Numbered from the stretch's first letter, positions 9,276 through 46,358 are shown. The stretch: 64,000 nucleotides of DNA from Candidatus Bathyarchaeia archaeon (GCA_038883795.1 JAVZLK010000002.1:64001-128000); one strand, 5' to 3'. Translations and numbers: made by a program. Notes: generated by a model not told the origin, from the letters alone.

Positions 9276-10391
9276 TCACTTTTTAACTTCGTTTTCATAT
9301 ATTTCGGAAATAAACTCGCCGATGGCTGGGGCAGCAGTTAAACCTGGCGACTCGATGCCTATCAAATTTATGAAACCAAACAAACCCTTATCCGCCTCAT
9401 GTCTTATAACAAAATCTCTAAACCCTTCCCCTGGACCCTGAAGTTTTGGTCTCACTCCAGCAAAATCCGATGTTAGTTGATAGTTGGTGATACATGGCAA
9501 AAATCTTTTGACATCTTCCCGAAACTCCTCTTCGTCAGAAGTCACTTCGTAGCTAATGTTATTCACGTAATAGGCGTTTGGTCCCAATTTGACCACTCCA
9601 GCCAAATCCGGAGTTAAATGGATTCCCAATCCCGGTCCTTTTGGAACAGGGTAAACGAGCATTTTTACTGGAGGTTTGCCGATAAGCCTAAAGTAATCGC
9701 CTTTACAATAATGCAGTTTATAACCAAGTTTTTCCACATCCAAGCCAATAAGTTTGGCGATTTTGTCTGAGTAAAGTCCAGCACAGTTTATCACAGTTTT
9801 GGCTTTGATTGTGAATTTTTCGCCGAAACTTGTCCCACTCACCTCATAAATATCTTTCACCTTCTTTAAACCTGTTACTTCTGTTTTTGTAGCCAAAACG
9901 GCACCGTTTTGGGAAGCCTTCGCATAAAAATAGTTCATAAGCTCATCAGGTTCCACAATGCCTGTAGAAGGCGTATAAAGCGCCTTTTCAACTTCAACAT
10001 TTGGCTCAAACCGCTTAACCTCTTCCTTTTCTAAAATTTTCAAGCCTTCCACTCCGTTTGCTCCTCCCCAACGCTTAAGTTTTTCCAACTCCTCCATTTC
10101 TTCCTCTTCGATGGCTACTGTCAGTTTTCCTAATGGCTTGTAGGGAATTTTGTATTTCTCGCAGATTTCGTAAATCATCAAATTGCCTTTAACGCACAAT
10201 TTGGCTTTTAGGGAGCCAGGGGGATAATGAATCCCTGAGTGAATTACGCCACTATTGTGAGTGCTTGTTTCTTGTCCAAACTTTGCATTTTTCTCCAAAA
10301 TATAGACGCCTTCATTATTTTCGGAAAGTTTTGCAGCTACAGCTAAGCCAACTACACCAGCGCCTATAACAACTATGTTTGCTTCTTCCAT
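9276..10391 (-). CDS. lhgO: FAD-dependent oxidoreductase, L-2-hydroxyglutarate oxidase (LhgO)-like
   Basis: GAGVVG Rossmann motif, ETSTHNSGVIHSGIHY, GLGIHLT, GIESPGLTAA; ATG at 10391. Confidence 0.8.
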   Translation of the reverse strand: MEEANIVVIGAGVVGLAVAAKLSENNEGVYILEKNAKFGQETSTHNSGVIHSGIHYPPGSLKAKLCVKGNLMIYEICEKYKIPYKPLGKLTVAIEEEEMEELEKLKRWGGANGVEGLKILEKEEVKRFEPNVEVEKALYTPSTGIVEPDELMNYFYAKASQNGAVLATKTEVTGLKKVKDIYEVSGTSFGEKFTIKAKTVINCAGLYSDKIAKLIGLDVEKLGYKLHYCKGDYFRLIGKPPVKMLVYPVPKGPGLGIHLTPDLAGVVKLGPNAYYVNNISYEVTSDEEEFREDVKRFLPCITNYQLTSDFAGVRPKLQGPGEGFRDFVIRHEADKGLFGFINLIGIESPGLTAAPAIGEFISEIYENEVKK

Positions 10392-31783: not shown

Positions 31784-33085
31784 TTATCCTATGGAAAGTT
31801 TTTCTTTATAGGCTTGTAAATCTAAAAATCCATGTCCGCTTATGTTCATGCATATGACCTTTTCTTCACCAGCTTTTTCAGCCTTTAATGCTTCATCTAT
31901 TCCCGCACGTATAGCGTAGCTTGACTCTGGTGCTGCAAGCCAACCTTCAGCTTGTAGGAAAATTCTTGCTGCTTCAAAAATTGCTTTTTCGTCTGCTGGG
32001 TAGGCTATAGCTTTTACTATGCCATGATGCCTAAGAACGCTTATGAGTGGAGCGGCAGCATGATAACGTAAACCATCCGCCTTTATGGGCACCATTTCCG
32101 TTTTATGCCCAAGCGTGTACATTTTAAGCATTGGCGTGTGTTCTGCTACATCGCCGAAATCATAGCGGTACTCGCCTTTAACAAGGTTTGGTGCCGCTTC
32201 TGACTGGGCTGCCAAAAACTCACATCGACGCTTTTTCTGTAAAACTTCGCCGGCAAAGGGTAGGGCTATTCCGCCAAAGTTTGAGCCTCCACCCAAACAA
32301 CCAATAATCAAGTCTGGAGAATCATCGGCAATTTCAAACTGTTTTATTGCTTCTAAACCGATGATTGATTGGTGTATTAGAACATGGTTTAGAACGGAGC
32401 CGAGGCAATAAACGCTTCCTTCATGGGTTTCCGCATATTCCAAGCCTTCTGAAACTGCTATGCCCAATGACCCTTGATGGTTTAAATCCTTAGCTAAAAG
32501 GGTTTTTCCGATGTTTGTTTCCTTGCTTGGAGAAGCATAAACGTCTGCTCCCATAAGTTTCATCAGCGTGCGCCTATCAGTCTTCCAGTTGTATACGGCT
32601 CTGACCCAAAAAATCACGCACCTAAGCCCCATAATTGCCGCTGCATAAGAAAGCGCACTTCCCCATTGTCCAGCTCCGGTTTCTGTTACTAATGTTGTTT
32701 TTCCTTCTTTAGCCGCATAATAGGCTTGTGCTAACGCTGTATTAACCTTGTGAGAGCCTGTGGGCGACAAGTCTTCCCGTTTATAATAAAGCCTCACCTT
32801 CTTCAGTCCCAGATATTTTTCTAATCTTCTGGCTCTGTAAAGGGGACGGGGGCGTCCAGCTTGAATATATAATTCTCTTATTTCCTCTGGAATTGGAATC
32901 CACCTTTCATTCGACATTTCCTGTCTAAGACATTCGTGCACCATGGTTTTTCCGAGAAATTCCATGCGTGAAGGACCAGTTTCTGGTTCTTTCGGTGGCG
33001 GTAATGGTTCGGGTAAATCTGGAATGATGTTGTACCATTTCGTCGGCAACTCGTCGATTGGGAGGTTTATTTGATTTTTCTCCAT
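31784..33085 (-). CDS. trpB2: tryptophan synthase beta chain, TrpB2 type
   Basis: PTGSHK, TETGAGQWG, GSLGIAVSE, GGGSNFGG, NISGHG. Confidence 0.93.
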   Translation of the reverse strand: MEKNQINLPIDELPTKWYNIIPDLPEPLPPPKEPETGPSRMEFLGKTMVHECLRQEMSNERWIPIPEEIRELYIQAGRPRPLYRARRLEKYLGLKKVRLYYKREDLSPTGSHKVNTALAQAYYAAKEGKTTLVTETGAGQWGSALSYAAAIMGLRCVIFWVRAVYNWKTDRRTLMKLMGADVYASPSKETNIGKTLLAKDLNHQGSLGIAVSEGLEYAETHEGSVYCLGSVLNHVLIHQSIIGLEAIKQFEIADDSPDLIIGCLGGGSNFGGIALPFAGEVLQKKRRCEFLAAQSEAAPNLVKGEYRYDFGDVAEHTPMLKMYTLGHKTEMVPIKADGLRYHAAAPLISVLRHHGIVKAIAYPADEKAIFEAARIFLQAEGWLAAPESSYAIRAGIDEALKAEKAGEEKVICMNISGHGFLDLQAYKEKLSIG

Positions 33086-36245: not shown

Positions 36246-37202
36246 TTAACAAGCCACCCTCCAGTGTCCCTGAACCTTATCCCCACTCAAGAAAACAATG
36301 TAACCACGCAAAATACCCTCAGCATACTCAGAACCAGGATTAACGCATAAGGTTCTACCAAACCTTTTGAAACCAGCAGACTCATGTATATGCCCATGCA
36401 ACCCCAAGAGAGGCTTATACTTCTCTATCATATGCCTCACAGCTTTGCTGCCCATAGGCGCCAAATCTACTCCGCCACCGAAGCGAACCCTAACTGAAAA
36501 GTCATCCTTAAGTCTGGGCGCTGTGTCGAGTCCAGAATTGTATGGTGGTGCATGAAAGTTGCATATGAGTTTCTCGTAATTTTTGGCTTTAGCCATTAAC
36601 CCCTCTAACATGGGTTCAAGCTTCTCGTCTGGCGCTTCCCTTGTGGTTTTCCAAGGAGTTGGATTAACCCAGCCGCATGTAACCATTTCATATCCGTCTG
36701 GAAGGTGGACAAGCTTCATTTCGCATGCAACTACAGAATCGCTCTTTTCAAGAATTTCATCAACAACCAAACGGTCGTCATTTCCAGGCGAAACGTAAAG
36801 CACGGATTTTCCCTTAAATTTTTCAGAGGCAAGGTCCATCCACTGTTGCATTCGTTCCACCATGAGGCGGTTGAAAAGGTCTTTTTGGGCTTGGGGGTCA
36901 TTGTTCAAGCGTTCAATTTCTTCTTTTTCGCATGGATAAGGATAGTAACCAGAATTGGCTATCTTTGCACTTTCTTCTTGAAGCTGATTTGCCGTAATTT
37001 TAATATGTCTGCCAAAAATTTCATATGAATATTCACTGCCTTCTCTAACCATTGGTATAACCATTTTTCCAGTTAAATCTCCACCCAAAATTGCAATGTC
37101 AACCTTAAAATGTTCAATTACTCTTAAAAACTTCTTCCAACAAGTGTCGCTTCCATGAACGTCTGATGCGAAGAAAAGTTTCAGCAACCTTTTCATCTCC
37201 AA
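36246..37202 (-). CDS. calcineurin-like metallophosphoesterase
   Basis: SDVHGS, GGDLTGK, PGNDD, HAPPY, HGHIHES, NPGSEY. Confidence 0.88.
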   Translation of the reverse strand: MEMKRLLKLFFASDVHGSDTCWKKFLRVIEHFKVDIAILGGDLTGKMVIPMVREGSEYSYEIFGRHIKITANQLQEESAKIANSGYYPYPCEKEEIERLNNDPQAQKDLFNRLMVERMQQWMDLASEKFKGKSVLYVSPGNDDRLVVDEILEKSDSVVACEMKLVHLPDGYEMVTCGWVNPTPWKTTREAPDEKLEPMLEGLMAKAKNYEKLICNFHAPPYNSGLDTAPRLKDDFSVRVRFGGGVDLAPMGSKAVRHMIEKYKPLLGLHGHIHESAGFKRFGRTLCVNPGSEYAEGILRGYIVFLSGDKVQGHWRVAC

Positions 37203-37229: not shown

Positions 37230-37241
37230 AAAATATACTTT
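37230..37241 (+). repeat. putative attL direct repeat
   Basis: AAAATATACTTT, identical to 45168-45179. Confidence 0.6.
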
Positions 37242-37250
37242 GCTCTATGC

Positions 37251-37451
37251 TTATGTCTGAGAAAGTAAATGTCTGCTATGTTTAACCATATGTTCGCAGT
37301 AATCCGTCGTTTCAGTTTGCGCATTATAGCAGTTTTGGCATTCAATTATTCGCTGTTTTAAATTCGCTTTCGGAAAACGCCAAACGCAATTAGAAAAAAT
37401 TGGGTGTTTCGGTTCGGCGGTTTCCGTTTGTTTTTTGGGCATCTTACGCAC
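37251..37451 (-). CDS. small Cys-containing hypothetical protein
   Basis: C..CQNC..C pattern; overlaps the upstream gene stop and ends just inside the left repeat. Confidence 0.5.
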   Translation of the reverse strand: MRKMPKKQTETAEPKHPIFSNCVWRFPKANLKQRIIECQNCYNAQTETTDYCEHMVKHSRHLLSQT

Positions 37452-37734
37452 GCTCGATTCTTACGCCTTTCTCTGTTCGGAAAATCTTTACGGGAATGTC
37501 TACACCTTTTTGCCAGCCGAGCGCTTCGTATAAGGCTTTTTCAATGTGCAAAAACCCGTATTTGTTGATTTTGCCTTCAAAAACTGTTTGTTCGGTTTCC
37601 TTGGCTTTCTTTTCGATTATCTCTGCAGCTTTTTCCTCAGCGGTTTTGCCTTCTGCTTTGGCTGACTTTTCGAGCGCTTCAGCCGTTTTCTCGGGTAATT
37701 GAATTTTCTTTTTCGGTTCAAATCTATTATTCAT
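37444..37734 (-). CDS. small DNA-binding-like protein (RHH-like N-terminus, AbrB-like C-terminus)
   Basis: IQLPEKTAEALEKSA..EGKT then GKINKYGFLHIEKALYEALGWQKG..V; AGGAG RBS-like upstream. Confidence 0.6.
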   Translation of the reverse strand: MNNRFEPKKKIQLPEKTAEALEKSAKAEGKTAEEKAAEIIEKKAKETEQTVFEGKINKYGFLHIEKALYEALGWQKGVDIPVKIFRTEKGVRIERA

Positions 37735-38369
37735 TTTTTCTCACTTCTCCTTTTAACTCGCCCTCGGCGTCTGTCCGAAGGCAATGAGAAAAAGGGGAAA
37801 AGAAAACTTCGCATTTCTGCTTGCTACACAGCCTACTTTGTATTTATCCTATGCAATCGAGTGTCGCTTACCCGCTTATATGCATCATGAACGTAATAAC
37901 GGTTTAATCCGCTATTCGTTTTTCATGTGCTGCATTTCGTGCGTTTCCGGGGCTTTACCATCGTGCCCGTTCCAGACCCGGGTAACCCCGTTCCCGCTTT
38001 CGCTTATCGGCGATTTAACGATTCGCTGATTATTTTTGAGCGTTTAAACGGGTCGCTTTTTCGATTGGCGCTTTTACGTTTATGCGTTTTTCGTTTCCGG
38101 GAGTTACGCTTTCCCGTCCGTTTTACGCTCGCTCCTACGGGTCGTTTCGTTTCGTTTTTTCCTGTGCGTGTCGCTTTGCGACGAATAAGCGTATATTGGG
38201 TATCTATTTAAATTTTAGGTATGAATTATTCAGATTAGGCTAATTAAGCCACAAATTGACGATTTTCAGACTATATAATAAAACGTTTGTCACACCAATT
38301 TAAAAAAGTGAAAATATGTGTAATTAAGAAAGTAAAAATTTAAATAAACAAACGATTATTAAATCACAA

Positions 38370-38394
38370 TGGTCATCAGTGATCAAAATGACCA
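38370..38394. promoter_or_regulatory. inverted-repeat operator overlapping the RHH start codon
   Basis: TGGTCAT(38370-76)-N11-ATGACCA(38388-94). Confidence 0.5.
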
Positions 38395-38537
38395 AACATA
38401 TAAAAATTAGTGATGAAAACTACAAAGAACTCATAAAAATCATCGGACTACTACAGGTCAAAGAAAAAAGAAGAGTGACTATAGATGATGCAATAGATTT
38501 TCTTCTTCAGAAGGTGAAAGTAGATGAACAACAATAA
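38388..38537 (+). CDS. small RHH-like regulator upstream of methyltransferase, not in ORF track
   Basis: MTKHIKISDENYKELIKIIGLLQVKEKRRVTIDDAIDFLLQKVKVDEQQ (49 aa); overlaps the MTase start. Confidence 0.7.
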   Translation: MTKHIKISDENYKELIKIIGLLQVKEKRRVTIDDAIDFLLQKVKVDEQQ

Positions 38538-39432
38538 GAACTCCCTTTATCCCGAACGTGTTTTGTCAGAGATCTTAAAGTCAAGAGAAATAGAACTGCC
38601 AAGGACTCGGCACAAGATTGTAATTGGTGACAGCAGACATATGGATGAAGTAGCAAACGAATCAGTGCATTTAATAGTTACATCGCCTCCTTACCCAATG
38701 ATAGATATATGGGACGGCTTATTCAAAAAATTAGGATGTAAAACCTTTAATGACATGCATGATTATTTAGCTGACGTTTGGGCGGAATGTAAACGAGTTC
38801 TAGTTAACGGCGGAATTGCTTGTATAAATATCGGGGATGCCCTACGAAAAGTTAACGGCGTCTTTAGACTTTTTCCAAATCATGCAGAAGTCATTAAAAG
38901 ATTTGAGGAACTCGGATTTGTAACATTGCCAAATATTCTTTGGAAAAAGCCTACGACTAAACCTAATTCTTTTCTTGGTTCTGGTTTCCTTCCAACCAAC
39001 GCTTATGTTACATTAGATTGCGAATATATACTGATTTTTAGAAAAGGTGGCGACCTGAGAAAGTTTCTTACAAAAGACCCATACAGATACGCCAGTTACT
39101 ATACAAAAGAGGAAAGAGATGTATGGTTTTCCCAAATTTGGGACATCAAAGGCGTTAAGCAAGAATCCAACGAAGTTGAAAGAAGAGTAGCAGCTTACCC
39201 AGACGAAATTCCTTATAGATTACTAAGAATGTTTTCGATAATAGGTGATACCGTTTTAGATCCATTCTTAGGAACAGGCACAACAACTAAAGTTGCCATG
39301 AACCTTCACAGAAATAGCATAGGCTATGAGATAGATGAAAAAATGCTAACTCTAATAAAGAAGAAAATCGGTTACCAGCAGAGATTGTTCGAACCACATA
39401 AATTTGAAATCGAAATAATTAAGAAGCATTAA
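38524..39432 (+). CDS. beta-class N4-cytosine DNA methyltransferase (type II RM)
   Basis: VTSPPY catalytic motif N-terminal to DPFLGTGTT SAM-binding motif. Confidence 0.92.
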   Translation: MNNNKNSLYPERVLSEILKSREIELPRTRHKIVIGDSRHMDEVANESVHLIVTSPPYPMIDIWDGLFKKLGCKTFNDMHDYLADVWAECKRVLVNGGIACINIGDALRKVNGVFRLFPNHAEVIKRFEELGFVTLPNILWKKPTTKPNSFLGSGFLPTNAYVTLDCEYILIFRKGGDLRKFLTKDPYRYASYYTKEERDVWFSQIWDIKGVKQESNEVERRVAAYPDEIPYRLLRMFSIIGDTVLDPFLGTGTTTKVAMNLHRNSIGYEIDEKMLTLIKKKIGYQQRLFEPHKFEIEIIKKH

Positions 39433-39470
39433 TTAAAAAATACTATTAACAAATATGGAAAGAGGCGACA

Positions 39471-39749
39471 ATGATGAGTAAACTTGTAAGAATAGAGCAT
39501 ACATTAAGAAGATGGGAGAAAAAGTATGGCTACATAGGGCTTTCTCTTGAACAAGAGCGTGATTTGTTTTCTGAAGTTAAGGATAAACGTTTTACATTGA
39601 AATTTTTAGGAAAAACTTTATTGGAACGGAAAATCGACGATAGCTGGCGCATATATGTTGGGTCCAGAGTTATGGAAGATTTAAAAGTTGATGACGTTTT
39701 GACAATTTACCAAGACAAAGACGGAAATTACTACGTTGAAAGAAAATAA
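39471..39749 (+). CDS. small hypothetical protein, possible B3/EcoRII-N-like beta-barrel
   Basis: beta-rich 92 aa with YGYIGL, RIYVG, LKVDDVLTI. Confidence 0.55.
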   Translation: MMSKLVRIEHTLRRWEKKYGYIGLSLEQERDLFSEVKDKRFTLKFLGKTLLERKIDDSWRIYVGSRVMEDLKVDDVLTIYQDKDGNYYVERK

Positions 39750-39752
39750 ATA

Positions 39753-40352
39753 TTATTGCTCAAACTCAAACTCTATACCATCTTCTGTTTTTCTGTAGTA
39801 AACAATCTTTGCTGCTATCTTTTCCCCCAAGCGACCCTTTTCAATTTTATAAGTTTCTGGTTTAATAGAGACTGGTGTATCACCAATGAATCCATCGATT
39901 CCTTGTGCTTCTTCATCTGGCGTCGCCAATCTGTAGTTTTTCCTCAAGGTTGAAGCAATTCTTTTTAGCACAAGCTCTTGAAAACGCAGTCCAATAAAAG
40001 TTTTAACCAACACCAAATCTTCAACCCATTCTCTCACTATATTTTCATCGATTTTATCCATAACATTTTTAAATTCTTCTAACTTTTTAACTATTTTCTT
40101 TGTCGCCCGATCTATTGCATTTGGCATCACAGCCAAATACCATTTTTTCCATCCTTCAAATGTCTTGTAAGGACATTTTTGAATTAACTCACTCATCTGT
40201 CCAACAACTTCTGGTCGTGTTGCACCAGAAAAGCGATTTGCCAAATTTAAAATAGGAGAAACGTAAGTAGGAAAAACCTTCGACTCGCCAATTAGTTCAG
40301 TCCTGAGTTCGTCATTTTTAAGTTTAAATTTCATTTCGTTCACACTTTGCAA
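39753..40352 (-). CDS. MjaI-family type II restriction endonuclease
   Basis: NLAN...ATRPEVVGQMSELI, WVEDLVLVKTFIGL, EEAQGIDGFIG..PVSIKP..Y. Confidence 0.82.
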   Translation of the reverse strand: MQSVNEMKFKLKNDELRTELIGESKVFPTYVSPILNLANRFSGATRPEVVGQMSELIQKCPYKTFEGWKKWYLAVMPNAIDRATKKIVKKLEEFKNVMDKIDENIVREWVEDLVLVKTFIGLRFQELVLKRIASTLRKNYRLATPDEEAQGIDGFIGDTPVSIKPETYKIEKGRLGEKIAAKIVYYRKTEDGIEFEFEQ

Positions 40353-40398
40353 ATGTGCTTTGTATATAAACTTGATAAAAAACTTTCGGGCAGAGCAA

Positions 40399-41517
40399 TC
40401 AATTTCTGAAAAAGGTTGTAAGCTCAGAGTTGGGAATAAACTTATGGAAGATTAAGCATTTATCAGACAGCGTATATCTAATAAGTTCCAGATTTGTTGG
40501 TTTATTTTCTTGTAAAAATTTCACAGCATCGCTTGAGAATTCTTTTGCACATAGGTAACCATATACTTTGCTTAAATTGTTTTCACAGAGAAACTCTGCT
40601 ATCCAAACCATATACTTGACAAGTTGGTTAATATGCTCAAAAGACGCTTCTTTAGTTTTTAACTCTATGATCTTATATATTCTGCAATCGTTTCTTTCCA
40701 GAAAACCAAAGACATCCATGAATTTTATGTAGAAAGAGCGAATGGTATTAGCAATGAAGCTAAAATCTCCAAAGATATTTTTAATATTTTCATGCGCCTT
40801 TAAATCCTCTGGCTCAAAGGCATTAGCCATAATCCACGCTTCCATTAATTTTTCATCTCTAACAAGACCATTAATAGGAACCAAAGGCAATTCTATCTTT
40901 TTAAAATTGGACAAATTTTTTGAAAATACACTCGAATTAGAAGGCCCTTTTGGATTATTCTTTCGAAGCAGTTCAATCAGTTTTTTACCCTCTTCAGGTA
41001 ATAGTGGTCTGACAGTTTTTTCTTTATCTTCATACTTCCATCTTTCTGGGATAGTCCATATGCCTTTACAAAGATCTTTTAACTTAAAAACTTCATTTGC
41101 ATCAAAACCTTCATCAAAATAGAGACCCTCATCAGATTTAATAGAAATTTGCCAAAGAAAGTCGCTTTCAGACAAGGAAGGTAACTTTTTATTAACCAAT
41201 TTTTCTTTTAATAAATTACTACTTCTAAATTCCTCAGGGATTGAAGGATTTTCCAGAAATGTGCTTTCAGCTCTAAAGGCACCAAAAATTTTTTGTTCAC
41301 CTTTCACATGTATAAAAATTTGATCATCTTTCTTCACCCTTTTTAGATCAGCGAATATATCATAAATAGTAGCAAGCAAAGCATTTAATTCTGCAATACT
41401 AAGCGATTTTTGTTTTGTATTCCTATAGTATTTTTTGGGAAGACGGACGCCTATATATCCTTCTCTAAGAAATTGTAAAAATGTTGATTTATTATCTACG
41501 CTTATTATATGCGGCAT
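40399..41517 (-). CDS. putative modification-dependent endonuclease (PUA/EVE-like N-domain plus NucS-like PD-(D/E)XK domain)
   Basis: VKKDDQIFIHVK..IFGAF N-domain; MDVFG...IIELK...QLVKY C-domain. Confidence 0.65.
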   Translation of the reverse strand: MPHIISVDNKSTFLQFLREGYIGVRLPKKYYRNTKQKSLSIAELNALLATIYDIFADLKRVKKDDQIFIHVKGEQKIFGAFRAESTFLENPSIPEEFRSSNLLKEKLVNKKLPSLSESDFLWQISIKSDEGLYFDEGFDANEVFKLKDLCKGIWTIPERWKYEDKEKTVRPLLPEEGKKLIELLRKNNPKGPSNSSVFSKNLSNFKKIELPLVPINGLVRDEKLMEAWIMANAFEPEDLKAHENIKNIFGDFSFIANTIRSFYIKFMDVFGFLERNDCRIYKIIELKTKEASFEHINQLVKYMVWIAEFLCENNLSKVYGYLCAKEFSSDAVKFLQENKPTNLELIRYTLSDKCLIFHKFIPNSELTTFFRN

Positions 41518-41703
41518 AACTTACTAAGATAAGATCATACTCTCACACTCAATAAAAGATTTATGTTAGGAGCCATCAATGTTGGAACAATTCAAAATCC
41601 TGAAATTTGAACTTGTGTTTAGAGGTCATATTCTCGACATCTCTTTGTATGATTCTGTCAAAATCTGGCAAAAAAGACTACTCAATGTTGTGAAAATTTA
41701 AAA

Positions 41704-41760
41704 TTCTGTTTTCCGTTTTTCGATTTTCGGTTTTCCGTATTTCGTTTTTCGGTTTTTCCG
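41704..41760 (+). repeat. degenerate 7-9-bp tandem repeat of TTTT(C)CG, about 8 units
   Basis: ttttccg tttttcg attttcg gttttccg tatttcg tttttcg gtttttccg. Confidence 0.75.
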
Positions 41761-41819
41761 AGTTGCGTTTTTTATTAAACGTTTATATATAATCCGTTTC
41801 GTTAACTAAGCGAAAAAAG

Positions 41820-42071
41820 TTGATAATAATGAGCGAAAAAGAGAAAAATCCAAAAGCCTGCCCATTATTGGTTAGCGATAACCCTAAGGACATTAAAAAG
41901 CTGAAACTTGAAAAAGGACAATGCCCAATTCCACCTATCCTTATGAATGCAAAACTTAGCAATATCGCCGAGACGGCTGGCGTTTCCGTTGAGCGAATGT
42001 TTGAAGCTTTGGTTAACATCACAATAGAAGAGTTGTGCTCAAAAGGTTTACTTAATCTGGTGAGAAAATGA
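41820..42071 (+). CDS. small hypothetical protein, possible RHH-like C-terminal helices
   Basis: IPPILMNAKLSNIAETAGVSVERMFEALV; TTTATATA box at 41782-41789. Confidence 0.55.
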   Translation: MIIMSEKEKNPKACPLLVSDNPKDIKKLKLEKGQCPIPPILMNAKLSNIAETAGVSVERMFEALVNITIEELCSKGLLNLVRK

Positions 42072-42712
42072 TGATAACTATTCATTGGCGAACAGTCCGT
42101 AAAATCTGGCGTGAATTAGCTGGTAAAAAACCTTCTCCTCAAACAAGGCATATATCGATTAACGGGCATGATGTTGTTGAAGTAATATTTACAGAAGAGC
42201 AAGCAAATGTAGTTATCGAAAGAGCTGACATAAAAGGCACAGATGCTATTAAAAAAGGTAAAAAGGGACCTATTGTTACTTTAAACCCGATGCATTTAAA
42301 TAGAGTTGGTTTCTTAGGACAAGTTGCATTTTATATATACGCTTTCGCTGATTTTAAAAAAGGTTTAGAATTAATTAAAATAGGGTATCAACCAGATATC
42401 ACCGATGTAGTTTTTAAGGGTTACCAGATTGATATAAAGACTCGTTCTAAACATTGGCATGATTGGCTTATGGTTCCAGAATTTCAATTTAAGAATAAAT
42501 TACACGATTTTTACGTTGGTTGTAGGCTTATGAGAGAAAATCCGTATATTATTCAAATATGGGGTTATGCAACTCGCAAAGAATTAGAAGAAGTTGAACC
42601 TTCCGATAAGTGGGGATATGATTTAACCAGAGCGATACCGTTTAAAAATCTTCACCCCGTTATTGAATTAAGAGATTTACGAATTAAAAAACCTCTTCAA
42701 TCATTCTTTTAA
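42068..42712 (+). CDS. putative PD-(D/E)XK nuclease
   Basis: GQVAF helix, PDITD...QIDIKTR, DFYV, WGYAT. Confidence 0.6.
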   Translation: MMITIHWRTVRKIWRELAGKKPSPQTRHISINGHDVVEVIFTEEQANVVIERADIKGTDAIKKGKKGPIVTLNPMHLNRVGFLGQVAFYIYAFADFKKGLELIKIGYQPDITDVVFKGYQIDIKTRSKHWHDWLMVPEFQFKNKLHDFYVGCRLMRENPYIIQIWGYATRKELEEVEPSDKWGYDLTRAIPFKNLHPVIELRDLRIKKPLQSFF

Positions 42713-42730
42713 ATCTCAACCTGATTCGTA

Positions 42731-43645
42731 ATTAGCGTTTAAATCTCGTGTTCAGTGCATCAACTTTTCGCTCGATAAGTTACCCTTCACCTCGGTTAAG
42801 AATAACCTCGTAAAATCGTGATGCACTAAACACAACATTTAAACGCTGATTTAAAAAAGCAACGAGATTTAGTGGCACGATTCGGTGCAATGTCTCTTCG
42901 CTTCACATGCTAGAGGATAGGTATAGCGGAAAACTCGACTCACGCTAATACGTATCTCCTAACCGATGAAACAAAGAGACATTGAATTGTTTCAACCTTT
43001 CTACCTCGAGAGAATAGGTCTGCGAAAATCTGCGTCTTAACGTGCCCTATATCCTACCGAGGTTGAAAGGTAGAAACGATAGTGCAAAGACTCTGTGTTT
43101 CTGTCGTCGGAGGCGTATAGTCAGTTCGGGAGGCAGTCCGGAGCAGCACCTATCCCCTAGGCGCAGAAACACAGAGACATTGCAGATTTACCCGATGCAC
43201 AATTTGAATACATAAAATTGAAAAATTGGTTCTCGTTTAAGAAAAATTCTGCTCACCCTATAACGCCTTTTTCTTTTTCCTTAATTGAAAATAAGCCTAT
43301 TAAGGATGAAGCACAGTTTTTCTTAAACGAGCTTCAATTTTTCAATTTTACAAAATGGGATAATACATGGAATTAGAACTTTAGTGGGTTATATCGCTTA
43401 AAGTTTGAGATTTTGAGATTTAGACTTTATAGCAGAATTTCGGGAAGGAAGAGATAGTAAGTTAGTTTAAAAGTTATCACTTTTGAAGAGGGTATATCTC
43501 TCCCTACGGTTTTTGCTATTAGACCCTAAATCTCAAAATATTGAATGTTGAATTGCGGGAAAATTTTTGCGCAAAAGCATGATAAACGCAGAATTATCAA
43601 GCGTTTAGGCACGGTTTGTTCGCTGATTTTTTAAGATTTTTCCGC
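42731..43645. repeat. array of seven long imperfect hairpins (ncRNA or ssDNA sites)
   Basis: Inverted repeats at 42731-42850, 42888-42984, 42986-43080, 43083-43184, 43213-43350, 43410-43539 and 43555-43645; no ORF of 60 aa or more in the track. Confidence 0.85.
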
Positions 43646-43757
43646 CAAAAGAGTATACCGCACAAAAACAATCAACAAGCTAAGATTATGGAACATAATT
43701 AATTAGGAGGTATAATCGAATCACCGTCCGCTATAACGAAATTTTTTGGGTGCGAAG

Positions 43758-45026
43758 TTACCGTTTTACGATAACCTCGCCATTTGAAAGCCTGTGAACG
43801 ATTTGCCAGCCAGCTTTAAGATATTGCAGAAGTTGGCTTTCGGGAATCTGTTCAAAAGTTTCGTTTAAACCCGCTCCATCTGGGTTCGTGTCGCTTTCCT
43901 TCATTAAATCTTCGAATTCTTTCTCCGTCATCCAGCGTTTCGCACGGTGACCGTATAAAGTCATTAATTCAGCGAAGAATCGTTTGCGTTCTTCAGCGTT
44001 TAAAGTTTCCATTCTGGCTTTTATTTCGGCTTTAAGCAGTTCGTCATGTTCAGGTTTCGGCTGTAAATCAATTAAGTGGTAAGCCTTTGCGTATATGTCT
44101 CTTTGAATGTTTTCAGAGGGAATTACGTAGCGGCTTTCAATGTCGCTCATTTTCAATTTATGTCCCATCCAATAACGCAATATTATGGGGTGCCTAATTT
44201 CTAAAGCCATATACGTTTCAAACAGCTTTCTTATTCGATGCGGTGAAGCTTTAACGCCGACTTTTTCGCCGAGCCTTTCCACTATTTTCGAAAGACAATC
44301 TAAACCGAGTTTTTCGTAAGGTTTTCTGTTGCTTACGGTTAATGGTGTATTATCGTTTATCGTTTCGCCCCGTTTACGCCTTAAATCCAAATATAACCTT
44401 AAAACTTCAATGGCGTTTGGTCCAAGCCAAGTTTCATATCGCACCTGTTCTTTACGCCTGATAACGTGTATGTGTATGAATTGTTCGCCTTTTTCAAAAT
44501 CTCGTTTTATGTCGCCGTAAGTTAATTCGATAAAATCTTCTCTGCTCATGCCTGAATCTTTTAAGCCTCGAATTATCCACCTTTGCTGAACAGTTGCGAC
44601 GTTATCTATTTTCTTAAATTCTTCAATCGTTAAAGGTTTAAGACCTTCAATAATGCCTACGCTCGGTGTTCCTATGTCCAATTTTATTCGACAGTTATAT
44701 TTGATTAGGCTTTTTACGGTTGCGTGAACGCTTGAGGCTACGTTTTTGGTGAAACCTCTGTTTTTGACAAGCCAATTTACGAATAAGTCAAGTTTAACAT
44801 CCCAATCTTCTAAGGCTTTGTCTAAATCCGCTTTTGCCTCAGTTTCCCATTTAGCCACCGTTTCATCAGGGTTTAACCCGCTGAATTCATGCCAAAGCAT
44901 AAGATTTCGTGAATAAATGCGTTCGGTTCTTTTGCTTCCGCTTTTCTTTGCTGCAAGCCTTTCAAATAATCTTTGAACGGTTTTAAACTGTTTCGCCCAC
45001 TTTTCATATTTGCTTTCGCTTTCCAT
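43758..45026 (-). CDS. tyrosine recombinase/integrase
   Basis: SGMSRED, RRK, SPHRIRK, WMGH, SRY catalytic-region motifs. Confidence 0.9.
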   Translation of the reverse strand: MESESKYEKWAKQFKTVQRLFERLAAKKSGSKRTERIYSRNLMLWHEFSGLNPDETVAKWETEAKADLDKALEDWDVKLDLFVNWLVKNRGFTKNVASSVHATVKSLIKYNCRIKLDIGTPSVGIIEGLKPLTIEEFKKIDNVATVQQRWIIRGLKDSGMSREDFIELTYGDIKRDFEKGEQFIHIHVIRRKEQVRYETWLGPNAIEVLRLYLDLRRKRGETINDNTPLTVSNRKPYEKLGLDCLSKIVERLGEKVGVKASPHRIRKLFETYMALEIRHPIILRYWMGHKLKMSDIESRYVIPSENIQRDIYAKAYHLIDLQPKPEHDELLKAEIKARMETLNAEERKRFFAELMTLYGHRAKRWMTEKEFEDLMKESDTNPDGAGLNETFEQIPESQLLQYLKAGWQIVHRLSNGEVIVKR

Positions 45027-45167
45027 TTTTCCACTTCCTTTAAATTAGACACTTTGCGCTTCCGCCCCTGAAGCCACGTAGTTGCTCACGTCCGTAAGGG
45101 CGCTTACGGTTTAAAAAAAAGGCGGGGATATTTTTAAACTTTATTTTATTGGACGTTTTTGTTTATT

Positions 45168-45179
45168 AAAATATACTTT
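45168..45179 (+). repeat. putative attR direct repeat
   Basis: AAAATATACTTT, about 140 bp upstream of the integrase start. Confidence 0.6.
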
Positions 45180-45269: not shown

Positions 45270-46358
45270 GTGCGTTACGTTCTCTTCAAAGATTATGATG
45301 GCACAACCTACGAAATTGAAATGCCATTAACTTCAAAAGTTAACTACGAAACTATCAGAAAAAGCCTTGAAATACCAGATTATGTTGACAAATCAAGTTT
45401 CACCATGGAAAGAGGCTTAGTTACCATTTGGGCTGGGCTTAACGCTCACAAAGTAAAAGAATTTTCTCCAACAGTATCTCTTCAAAAACCCATCAGAGAA
45501 CCCATACCAACTTTATTCTTTGGCGGGGCAGCAGTTCGCATGCTATCTCCAAGCGCAAACAAACCTTCAAGCCCCTTCTTCCGCGAATTAAACGACATAG
45601 ACTTAATTGCTCCCAAAAACCGCGCCCAAGACCTCTACAAATTATTGTTATCCCTTGGCGAAATTTGTGGAACAAGATATTACCATTTCGCAGCCCGTTC
45701 CGACTGCAGATTTAACGCTATGAGGGCTGGAAAACGTTACCGTGTTAGAACCATCGAAAAAATCCTTGAAGATGACTCACTAGAATGTGGAGTCCTTGAC
45801 ATATTCACAGACGCCGTGGACCTTAGGCATAAAGTTGACGTCCGCGAAGAATTCAACTTTCCAAAAGAAAACTTGTATACAATAGGCATTGAAAACGTCA
45901 TCCTCTCCAAATGTCAATTTATCTTTGACGTGCCAGTTTCCGTCCGAAATGAGCTTACCCGCCAGCACATGGAATATCGAGTTCTCAACTACCCCCATTA
46001 TAAAAGTGACCGCCTTTTGATTGGTATAGAAGAGAAGGACATGAAAGACGTATGCGCATTATTCTTTGACCACGAAATTGGCAACCAAAAAGATAACATA
46101 AACCCAGACAAAATGCGCAAAATTCTTGAAAAGGATAAGAAGTTTGCCTTAACTTTCCGGCTCAATCTCGAAAACATATTAAGAAATGATGTGGTTCTTC
46201 AAGGGATAGGGTTCTCAAAGGCAGATATTACAAAAATTTTCTCCCGCATACAGAAGATCTTAGATGCTATGCCAAAAGTGGAGAAGAAATGGAGTAGTCC
46301 ATGGTGGAACGTTGATGTGGAAACTCCTCAAATAGTTGGGAAAAGCCACATTTCATAG
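45270..46358 (+). CDS. putative nucleotidyltransferase-fold protein
   Basis: FFGGAAV...RELNDIDL (hGG...DhD), later LDIF and LSKCQ, KDMKD. Confidence 0.6.
   Translation: MRYVLFKDYDGTTYEIEMPLTSKVNYETIRKSLEIPDYVDKSSFTMERGLVTIWAGLNAHKVKEFSPTVSLQKPIREPIPTLFFGGAAVRMLSPSANKPSSPFFRELNDIDLIAPKNRAQDLYKLLLSLGEICGTRYYHFAARSDCRFNAMRAGKRYRVRTIEKILEDDSLECGVLDIFTDAVDLRHKVDVREEFNFPKENLYTIGIENVILSKCQFIFDVPVSVRNELTRQHMEYRVLNYPHYKSDRLLIGIEEKDMKDVCALFFDHEIGNQKDNINPDKMRKILEKDKKFALTFRLNLENILRNDVVLQGIGFSKADITKIFSRIQKILDAMPKVEKKWSSPWWNVDVETPQIVGKSHIS

Follow-up and report, generated by a model that had tools for sequence, protein, structure and literature searches.

In pRN1, a crenarchaeal plasmid of the pRN family, replication depends on a 100-nucleotide (nt) stem-loop in the non-coding DNA downstream of the replication operon. 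The stem-loop still works after being moved, and an intact stem matters more than where it lies (PMC4234260). In the integrative virus SNJ2, a pleolipovirus of the Rep-Arvir family, a conserved hairpin of ~20 nt downstream of an integrase-containing replication operon is the proposed origin, and is accompanied by an upstream inverted repeat and a dedicated Rep (ORF19) (PMC13107129). Here we describe an array of long imperfect hairpins at positions 42731-43645 of a 64,000-nt stretch of the genome of a Candidatus Bathyarchaeia archaeon from a hot spring (GCA_038883795.1, JAVZLK010000002.1:64001-128000; this whole stretch is called the window), situated between the genes of a tyrosine integrase and of a PD-(D/E)XK-like protein (o214) within an integrated element of ~7.9 kb. 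The array is best explained as the principal non-coding module in small integrative elements of Bathyarchaeia that make up a rare family.

Like the pRN1 stem-loop, the units are hairpins of ~100 nt in non-coding DNA of a small archaeal element, and they lie just downstream of the integrase gene of that element, as in origins of the pRN1/SNJ2 type. The differences are that pRN1 has one stem-loop beside a prim-pol/helicase Rep, whereas this locus has six to seven hairpins beside an integrase with no Rep recognised, and that, compared with SNJ2, the hairpins are five times longer and multiple, with no such Rep found. Integron attC arrays and clusters of attC sites lacking an integron integrase (CALINs), including archaeal ones, are likewise runs of imperfect hairpin sites of similar size beside a tyrosine recombinase (10.1101/2022.02.06.479319), but the window array has neither R''/R' boxes nor cassette open reading frames (ORFs) nor IntI, and the crossover site is elsewhere. 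Units of ~100 nt with long inverted arms are also found in MITEs (miniature transposable elements with inverted repeats) and in the SMR-A and PATE elements of Haloquadratum (PMC3119063). Those are multi-copy and dispersed, whereas the window units occupy a single locus, with no transposase or IS605-type ends seen. The single-strand origins of rolling-circle plasmids are long imperfect palindromes in non-coding DNA as well, and their function is specific to strand and orientation; the array, in contrast, has no strand bias and contains flipped units, and no HUH or Rep_trans-type initiator was found. Judged by titles and abstracts, none of the listed papers on hairpins or imperfect palindromes and archaeal integrases describes such an array, and the word 'hairpin' is absent from a 2021 review of archaeal tyrosine recombinases; the literature on Bathyarchaeia mobile elements that was brought up consists of surveys of viruses and proviruses. 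The array probably belongs with the hairpin cis-elements of small archaeal mobile elements, with a minority chance that it is something categorically different.

A hairpin array inside a bounded integrated element

The genes of o214 (42068-42712, plus strand) and of the 422-amino-acid (aa) integrase (43758-45026, minus strand, at the right end of the element) converge across the array, and their stops are separated by a gap of 1,045 nt without a long ORF. The ORFs that overlap it are of 41-57 aa only and are regarded as chance ORFs, in agreement with an earlier note on this DNA, which had described the gap as ORF-free and tiled by seven consecutive hairpins. An inverted-repeat search returned positions matching the hairpins and arms of that note, and each unit was folded as RNA on both strands and as DNA and compared with 200 dinucleotide shuffles. 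Units H1 to H6 folded far better than the shuffles on each strand, with RNA z-scores of -5.6 to -9.9 (plus) and -4.5 to -10.0 (minus) and DNA z-scores of -4.1 to -8.0, so that six real long imperfect hairpins are confirmed. The seventh unit, H7 (43555-43645), is a weak hairpin and was marginal (z -2.1 and -1.7 for RNA plus and minus, -1.6 for DNA), and a weaker eighth that had been suggested at 43659-43754 was unsupported (z -0.6 and -0.8).

Hairpin H1 (42731-42850; arms I2, 42730-42762/42819-42851; z -8.5 and -10.0 for RNA plus and minus, the order used hereafter) has the outer arms TAAATCTCGT and ACGAGATTTA at 42740-42749 and 42862-42871. It is followed by H2 (42886-42984; arms I4, 42888-42924/42948-42984), H3 (42986-43080; arms I5, 42986-43016/43050-43080; z -5.6 and -5.3) and H4 (43083-43184; arms I6, 43083-43103/43164-43184; z -6.0 and -4.5), which abut with gaps of 1-2 nt as the note had it. 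H2 and H4 are inverted paralogues around H3, so that H2-H3-H4 forms one larger palindrome with H3 at its centre. A 21-nt leader motif, GCATCGGGTAAATCTGCAATG (43178-43198, minus strand), abuts and enters the 5' arm of H4, and a degenerate leader (42866-42892) lies ahead of H2. The 41-nt arms of H5 (43213-43350; arms I1, 43213-43253/43310-43350, 88%; z -9.9 and -10.0) each contain two AAAATTG repeats, and H6 (43410-43539; arms I7, 43410-43423/43526-43539; z -6.3 and -6.5) completes the strong units. Neighbouring units either abut or are 28-59 nt apart. The word TAAATCTS flanks units in inverted copies, and seven of its 20 copies in the window fall within 42672-43534, the expectation for the whole window being 7.1.

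The folding preference varies by unit, in line with the view of the note that no single strand is clearly preferred. A minus-strand preference was borne out for H1 and H2, whereas the plus-strand preference proposed for H5-H7 held for H6 and H7 and failed for H5 (-54.6 kcal/mol on the minus strand against -48.6 on the plus); H4 also folds better on the plus strand.

A gapped inverted-repeat scan of the whole 2.18-Mb assembly (81 contigs, 837 chunks; cut-off at least 60 nt and a score of at least 22) gave 24 non-overlapping strong long hairpins, five of which lie in the ~850 nt of the array (G000:C2:106699-107539). A stricter ungapped scan, with eight matches to which the array contributed only H1 and H5, was not used for counts.

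The array sits inside a precisely bounded integrated element and not at its attachment (att) site. Two copies of a 12-bp direct repeat, AAAATATACTTT, form the attL core (37230-37241) and the attR core (45168-45179) at the left and right junctions of the ~7.9-kb element (37242-45167). The genes flanking it (36246-37202 and 45270-46358) have orthologues only 132-147 bp apart in three congeners (G001, G002 and G003) of the source genome (G000, 2.18 Mb); the empty-site alignments break at 37241 and 45168, with an overlap of 11-21 nt present at both ends, and the element is inserted between two divergent genes, one for a metallophosphoesterase and the other a conserved gene of 362 aa. The depth of metagenome contigs, which is ~7 across the integrase and 75-230 from ~45168 onward, agrees with the boundary. 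Since the 12-bp repeat bounds the element and empty sites exist in the three congeners, the crossover of the integrase is placed at the two ends of the element, with the nearest hairpin 1.4 kb away, and not in the hairpins, contrary to the proposal that the units serve this integrase as recombination sites. The att arms and the array shared seven 9-mers, one 10-mer and no 11-mer, against null means of 5.0, 1.3 and 0.4, which is no excess.

Homologous arrays and the turnover of their units

Homologous hairpins were identified at four loci: the window, L038 in the congener G001, L041 on a metagenome contig, and L095 in G460, a genome of another genus. All four have a tyrosine integrase beside the array, as the earlier association of the two would have it, and the position is kept, after the integrase stop and on the coding-strand side of the integrase; the array starts within ~110 nt of that stop in the window and lies downstream of the integrase in the other three. 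A DNA search for array homologues among 60 relatives was positive for one, G001, and a search of the class sample gave no match in 400 genomes besides G000. A covariance model of the H2/H4 family matched three of 151 family genomes (G000, G001 and G460), all at the array locus, and no extra copy of any unit was detected in G000 itself, where the matches were to self or short with E >= 0.3. These absence counts are limited by the loss of repeats that metagenome-assembled genomes (MAGs) may undergo.

Identical copies of the leader occur twice in G001 and once in L041, and diverged copies occur in G460. A leader search in genome contigs recovered the G001 record only, and a 19-mer scan of metagenomes gave 11 contigs, of which only L041 was related, the others being chance matches in coding DNA. 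When up to three mismatches were allowed, 37 matches were obtained in 32 of 332 family genomes, compared with six for the reversed control; among 30 of these loci that were inspected, an integrase was within 3 kb in G000 and G001 only, the other 28 having contexts that looked coding or unrelated. Viral contigs had no related locus by the leader 20-mer, a 28-mer of the H3 loop or the o214 profile.

The G001 element (L038 7045-10027, G001:C8) is 2,933 bp long and is bounded by 50-bp direct repeats that correspond to the 3' half of a transfer RNA gene, tRNA-Gly(GCC). Its integrase belongs to PF16795 and has no similarity to the PF00589-like integrase of the window, and the choice of the 50-bp tRNA-Gly repeat by this unrelated enzyme also speaks against hairpins as integrase sites. 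The remaining content is a 56-aa AbrB/MazE-like ORF, a 187-aa ORF (o187), an array of roughly 1 kb, and one more hairpin (9631-9757, z ~ -6) in a second gap of ~0.35 kb just upstream of the AbrB-like gene; because only the integrase and two ORFs stand beside it, the array is by far the largest non-coding part of the element. The units follow the order H7-like, H1, an H4 arm fragment, H5, leader plus H3, H2 and another H4 arm fragment, and the H2-H3 block is 88% identical between the window and G001.

In L041, whose integrase is 39% identical to that of the window, a 1.3-kb gap between the integrase and an o214 homologue contains an identical 21-nt leader followed by an H4-like hairpin. On this contig the integrase is separated from the hairpin gap by an HNH endonuclease-like ORF (1979-2386; PHROGs E ~1e-5). 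G460 has an integrase with 25% identity to that of the window, and the 1.15-kb gap downstream of it contains units resembling H1 and H4, the latter with a leader, as well as a second word like the leader and a stretch like the H7 tail, all collinear with the window, and in addition a hairpin of its own (z ~ -6). The 3' part and tail of H7 (43625-43679) are thus conserved beside the G460 integrase stop, where blastn aligned 55 nt at 73% with L095 7995-8048. No homologue of H6 was found in other genomes or loci.

The covariation of stems that the earlier note had proposed as a check was found in the alignments of both H1 and the H2/H4 family. For H1 (three genomes: G000, G001 and G460), 86% of the cells were paired compared with 27-46% when partners were slid, and 13 double-sided pair changes were counted against 1-4 in the slid controls; the observed values were reached in none of 500 shuffles. 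For the H2/H4 family (five sequences), 85.9% of the cells were paired against 37-50% in slid controls, with eight double-sided changes against 0-4. Columns 27/79 of the H2-H3 alignment (A1) give an example, a compensatory C:G to T:A change between the window and G001. From these alignments, the hairpin potential of homologous units is shown to have been kept through compensatory changes across genomes. In H1 and H5 the arms are conserved and the apices unalignable. G-T and A-C cells numbered 10:6 in H1 and 11:10 in H2/H4, showing no strand bias, and the energetically preferred strand switches among units and among genomes.

Loops, and the number, order and orientation of units, vary between elements, as the note had asked of homologous arrays, and units were flipped, lost or duplicated. 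The asymmetric flanks of H1 show that in G000 it has the opposite orientation to its counterparts in G001 and G460, and the G000/G001 inversion joint includes 14 unrelated bases, so that the exchange was imprecise. Contigs from hot-spring metagenomes carry the G001-type opposite-strand joint 42871/43199, and a second opposite-strand joint was seen at 43214/43544. G001-type contigs have lost H4 exactly, skipping from 43075 to 43177, and the deletion lies exactly between TGCA...TGCA words; in one X2 contig H7 is joined directly to H5, with no piece on H6. An 818-nt X1 contig follows the integrase gene for 401 nt, with six differences, and ceases to match at 43750. The array region turns over much faster than the integrase gene.

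Possible functions of the array

Our favoured reading, to which a probability of roughly 40% is assigned, is that the array is a cis-acting DNA palindrome module, most plausibly one whose hairpins serve as the origin of replication, or as the region where replication is primed, once the element has been excised. Its modular units are long imperfect palindromes of 95-140 nt, some with the 21-nt leader ahead of them. They would act as DNA, whether extruded as hairpins or cruciforms or folded on one or the other single strand, and their action would be in cis, most likely where replication of the excised circle starts or is primed. The TAAATCT(C/G) words and the leader would be candidate protein-binding sites, and the PD-(D/E)XK-like neighbour o214 a possible structure-specific partner. 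A DNA-palindrome function is favoured over one folded RNA because of the strand symmetry, the tolerance of flipping, the variable copy number, the conservation of arms with free loops and the clustering of TAAATCTS, and the origin or priming function is suggested because the array is the largest cis-acting space in the G001 element and because of the pRN1 and SNJ2 precedents.

Our confidence in an origin is limited to this level by the lack of a recognised Rep, the unprecedented multiplicity and the high turnover, and several observations weigh against it. Pfam scans detected no replication initiator, primase or helicase in the element or in the G001 mini-element, and PHROGs and NCBIfam scans of o214, the 362-aa flanking ORF, the NucS-like protein and the integrase detected no Rep. 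Known hairpin origins have one or two hairpins, not six, while L041 has a single one, and fast turnover with differing unit joints is not expected for a conserved origin. The compensatory changes in a DNA palindrome could arise by arm-to-arm conversion without function, and the o214 family accompanies the array in only two of the four loci, possibly three.

Mobile elements of Bathyarchaeia are almost uncharacterised, including the manner in which small integrative ones replicate, and the locus supplies a 7.9-kb bounded element with empty-site controls, a 2.9-kb minimal relative and a covarying hairpin module, the obvious candidate for the cis-acting core. If it is an origin, the array would be a multi-hairpin version of the pRN1/SNJ2 type and could seed a vector for an uncultured lineage; if it is not, the flip-tolerant, fast-shuffling units of leader and hairpin would be without a described counterpart.

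It is possible, if doubtful, that the array functions as RNA. The messenger RNA (mRNA) of the integrase, or that of the convergent nuclease gene, would carry the hairpins in its 3' untranslated region, or they would be made as separate small hairpin RNAs; they would govern how stable the mRNA is or where it terminates (retroregulation), or would have the neighbouring nuclease as their target. The constant location of the array directly after the integrase stop, between convergent genes, is consistent with this, as are the covarying stems, the consensus fold of H1, H2-H3 and H5 from G000 and G001, which is 3-6.5 kcal/mol better on the integrase-sense strand, and the six conserved G-U pairs of H2-H3 on that strand against one on the other. 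However, the count of G-U against A-C across all homologues was 21:16, which is no excess, H4, H6 and H7 favour the other strand, H1 is flipped between genomes, and a unit number ranging from one to at least six does not suit one integrated fold. Rfam 15 gave no match at gathering score across the whole window; the ten sub-threshold matches were to eight microRNA-precursor models, regarded as chance, one CRISPR repeat and one small nucleolar RNA. Structured RNA and a single-strand origin, the secondary options of the earlier note, may still apply, but the missing strand bias speaks against the classical, strand-specific form of such an origin.

We also regard as doubtful, though worth weighing, the idea that the units are self-maintaining palindromes without a function in the element, that is, MITE- or SMR-like insertions or duplications in a permissive gap, whose symmetry would be maintained by arm-to-arm conversion or hairpin-templated repair and whose instability would cause the rearrangements. 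The inverted paralogy of H2 and H4, the truncated H4 arms and duplicated leader of G001, the exact deletion of H4 between TGCA words, the multi-base arm-to-arm 'corrections' in H5 and the fast strain turnover are all in keeping with it, and in Haloquadratum mobile repeats of ~110 bp, whose inverted ends are prominent, insert into palindromes of other elements (PMC3119063). The distribution points the other way: no other unit copy exists in the own genome, none was found in the 400 other class genomes, and the 151 family genomes gave only the array loci of G000, G001 and G460. Moreover, two genera with integrases that are 25% identical share a collinear arrangement of H1, H4 and the H7 tail, which implies long retention, and the 21-nt leader is identical between elements whose integrases are 39% identical. 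A dispersed MITE was rejected on the same searches, and the genome-wide scatter of an unrelated MITE family that the note had named was not found, the units being confined to a single locus. Target-site duplications were not seen at the units by eye, without a systematic search, and the element has no transposase.

An unlikely, categorically different possibility is that leader plus long hairpin is a new modular cassette of archaeal mobile elements and not an origin, gained, lost, flipped and duplicated as a unit. In its folded form the nucleic acid would cooperate with nucleases that the element encodes, and might offer structure-specific recognition sites or decoys when elements are in conflict with one another or with host defence.

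Quite unlikely, in our estimation, are hairpins serving as substrates or decoys of o214. The protein would bind or cleave extruded cruciforms, for instance as the first step of replication or recombination, or a nuclease would be titrated by them. The residues D110, D113, D122 and K124 of o214 are invariant in 14 sequences, forming a PD...DxK signature, its weak matches in the PDB include archaeal Hjc Holliday-junction resolvases besides restriction endonucleases, and an o214 homologue, a hairpin and an integrase occur together in L041. Yet all of these fold matches have E >= 0.1, the array of G460 has no o214 relative that could be found, and the relation of o214 to G001 o187 is doubtful (weak match, E 0.0044, probability 8%).

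That the integrase excises, inverts or shuffles folded or inverted units, in the manner of attC sites or a shufflon, is most unlikely, for although the order and orientation of units differ among genomes with the two opposite-strand joints given above, a tyrosine recombinase stands beside all four arrays and inverted TAAATCTS words flank units, the att core is at the element ends, or in tRNA-Gly in G001, the att arms and array share no excess k-mers, homologous arrays go with unrelated integrases, R-box ends and an IntI signature are absent, the mapped inversion joint is imprecise and arrays are absent from 29 other loci that encode homologues of this integrase.

Other known classes were rejected as well. 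Integron attC sites were excluded by a motif search of 42700-43760, which gave one GTTRRRY, no same-strand RYYYAAC and no pair 40-150 nt apart, and an integron or CALIN by the lack of an IntI-type integrase and of cassette ORFs between units, so that the lack of RYYYAAC/GTTRRRY ends and cassette ORFs noted earlier stood. A shufflon has inverted words in common with the array, but here the segments are non-coding and the one mapped inversion joint is imprecise. The array is not a CRISPR, as had been stated, since there are no identical direct repeats, only two-copy families at 71-100% identity with irregular spacing; the sole CRISPR model match scored 21 bits against a gathering score of 43.

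Integrase, o214 and other features of the element

The integrase matched PF00589 with E 1.1e-5, just short of the Pfam cut-off, and phrog_1 (integrase) in PHROGs; its best NCBIfam match was XerA (42.7 bits against a cut-off of 220), and no integron-integrase model was among its NCBIfam matches. Of the 401 genomes of the class, 79 contained homologues of it.

The o214 family is tiny, with 13 proteins that are all annotated as 'hypothetical protein' and none of which has a Pfam domain; a lead from an atlas to DUF5843 was not borne out by Pfam. The AlphaFold2 model of o214 had a predicted local distance difference test (pLDDT) value of 82. The PD-(D/E)XK label given earlier to this gene is plausible, being backed by the invariant signature and by neither a Pfam match nor a strong fold match. 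Among the 401 class genomes the o214 profile matched only G000 and, weakly, G191, at a locus without hairpins, and the homologue in L041 is 46% identical over 112 aa.

Besides o214, the array and the integrase, the element contains small ORFs and, as cargo at 38524-40352, an N4/N6 DNA methylase (PF01555) and an MjaI-type restriction endonuclease (PF09568, E 7e-66). The 372-aa NucS-like protein is encoded at 40399-41517 and has a weak NucS/PD-(D/E)XK C-terminus. A 96-aa minus-strand ORF (37444-37734) would, after circularisation, lie upstream of the integrase and co-oriented with it (across 45027-45167), which is a positional remark only; restoration of an operon through circularisation has been reported for SNJ2. 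A tRNA scan of the window was negative. Neighbours in the surroundings include CDC48, aEF-1beta, FEN1 and the MjaI-type restriction system, and an 18/21 match to the leader lies at 33006-33026, in the 5' part of a gene for a pyridoxal phosphate (PLP)-dependent enzyme (31784-33085, minus strand); none was expected in shuffles, and it may be a chance match.

Tyrosine recombinases are unusually abundant in the source genome, a MAG of 2.18 Mb with 26 matches to PF00589 and five to PF16795, many of them on short contigs. Five of the 19 strong hairpins outside the array (C64:2329-2435, C64:3908-3973, C21:11718-11795, C19:12066-12154 and C10:41930-42165), which have no sequence in common with it, lie within 3 kb of a tyrosine recombinase match, compared with 6.9% expected at random places.

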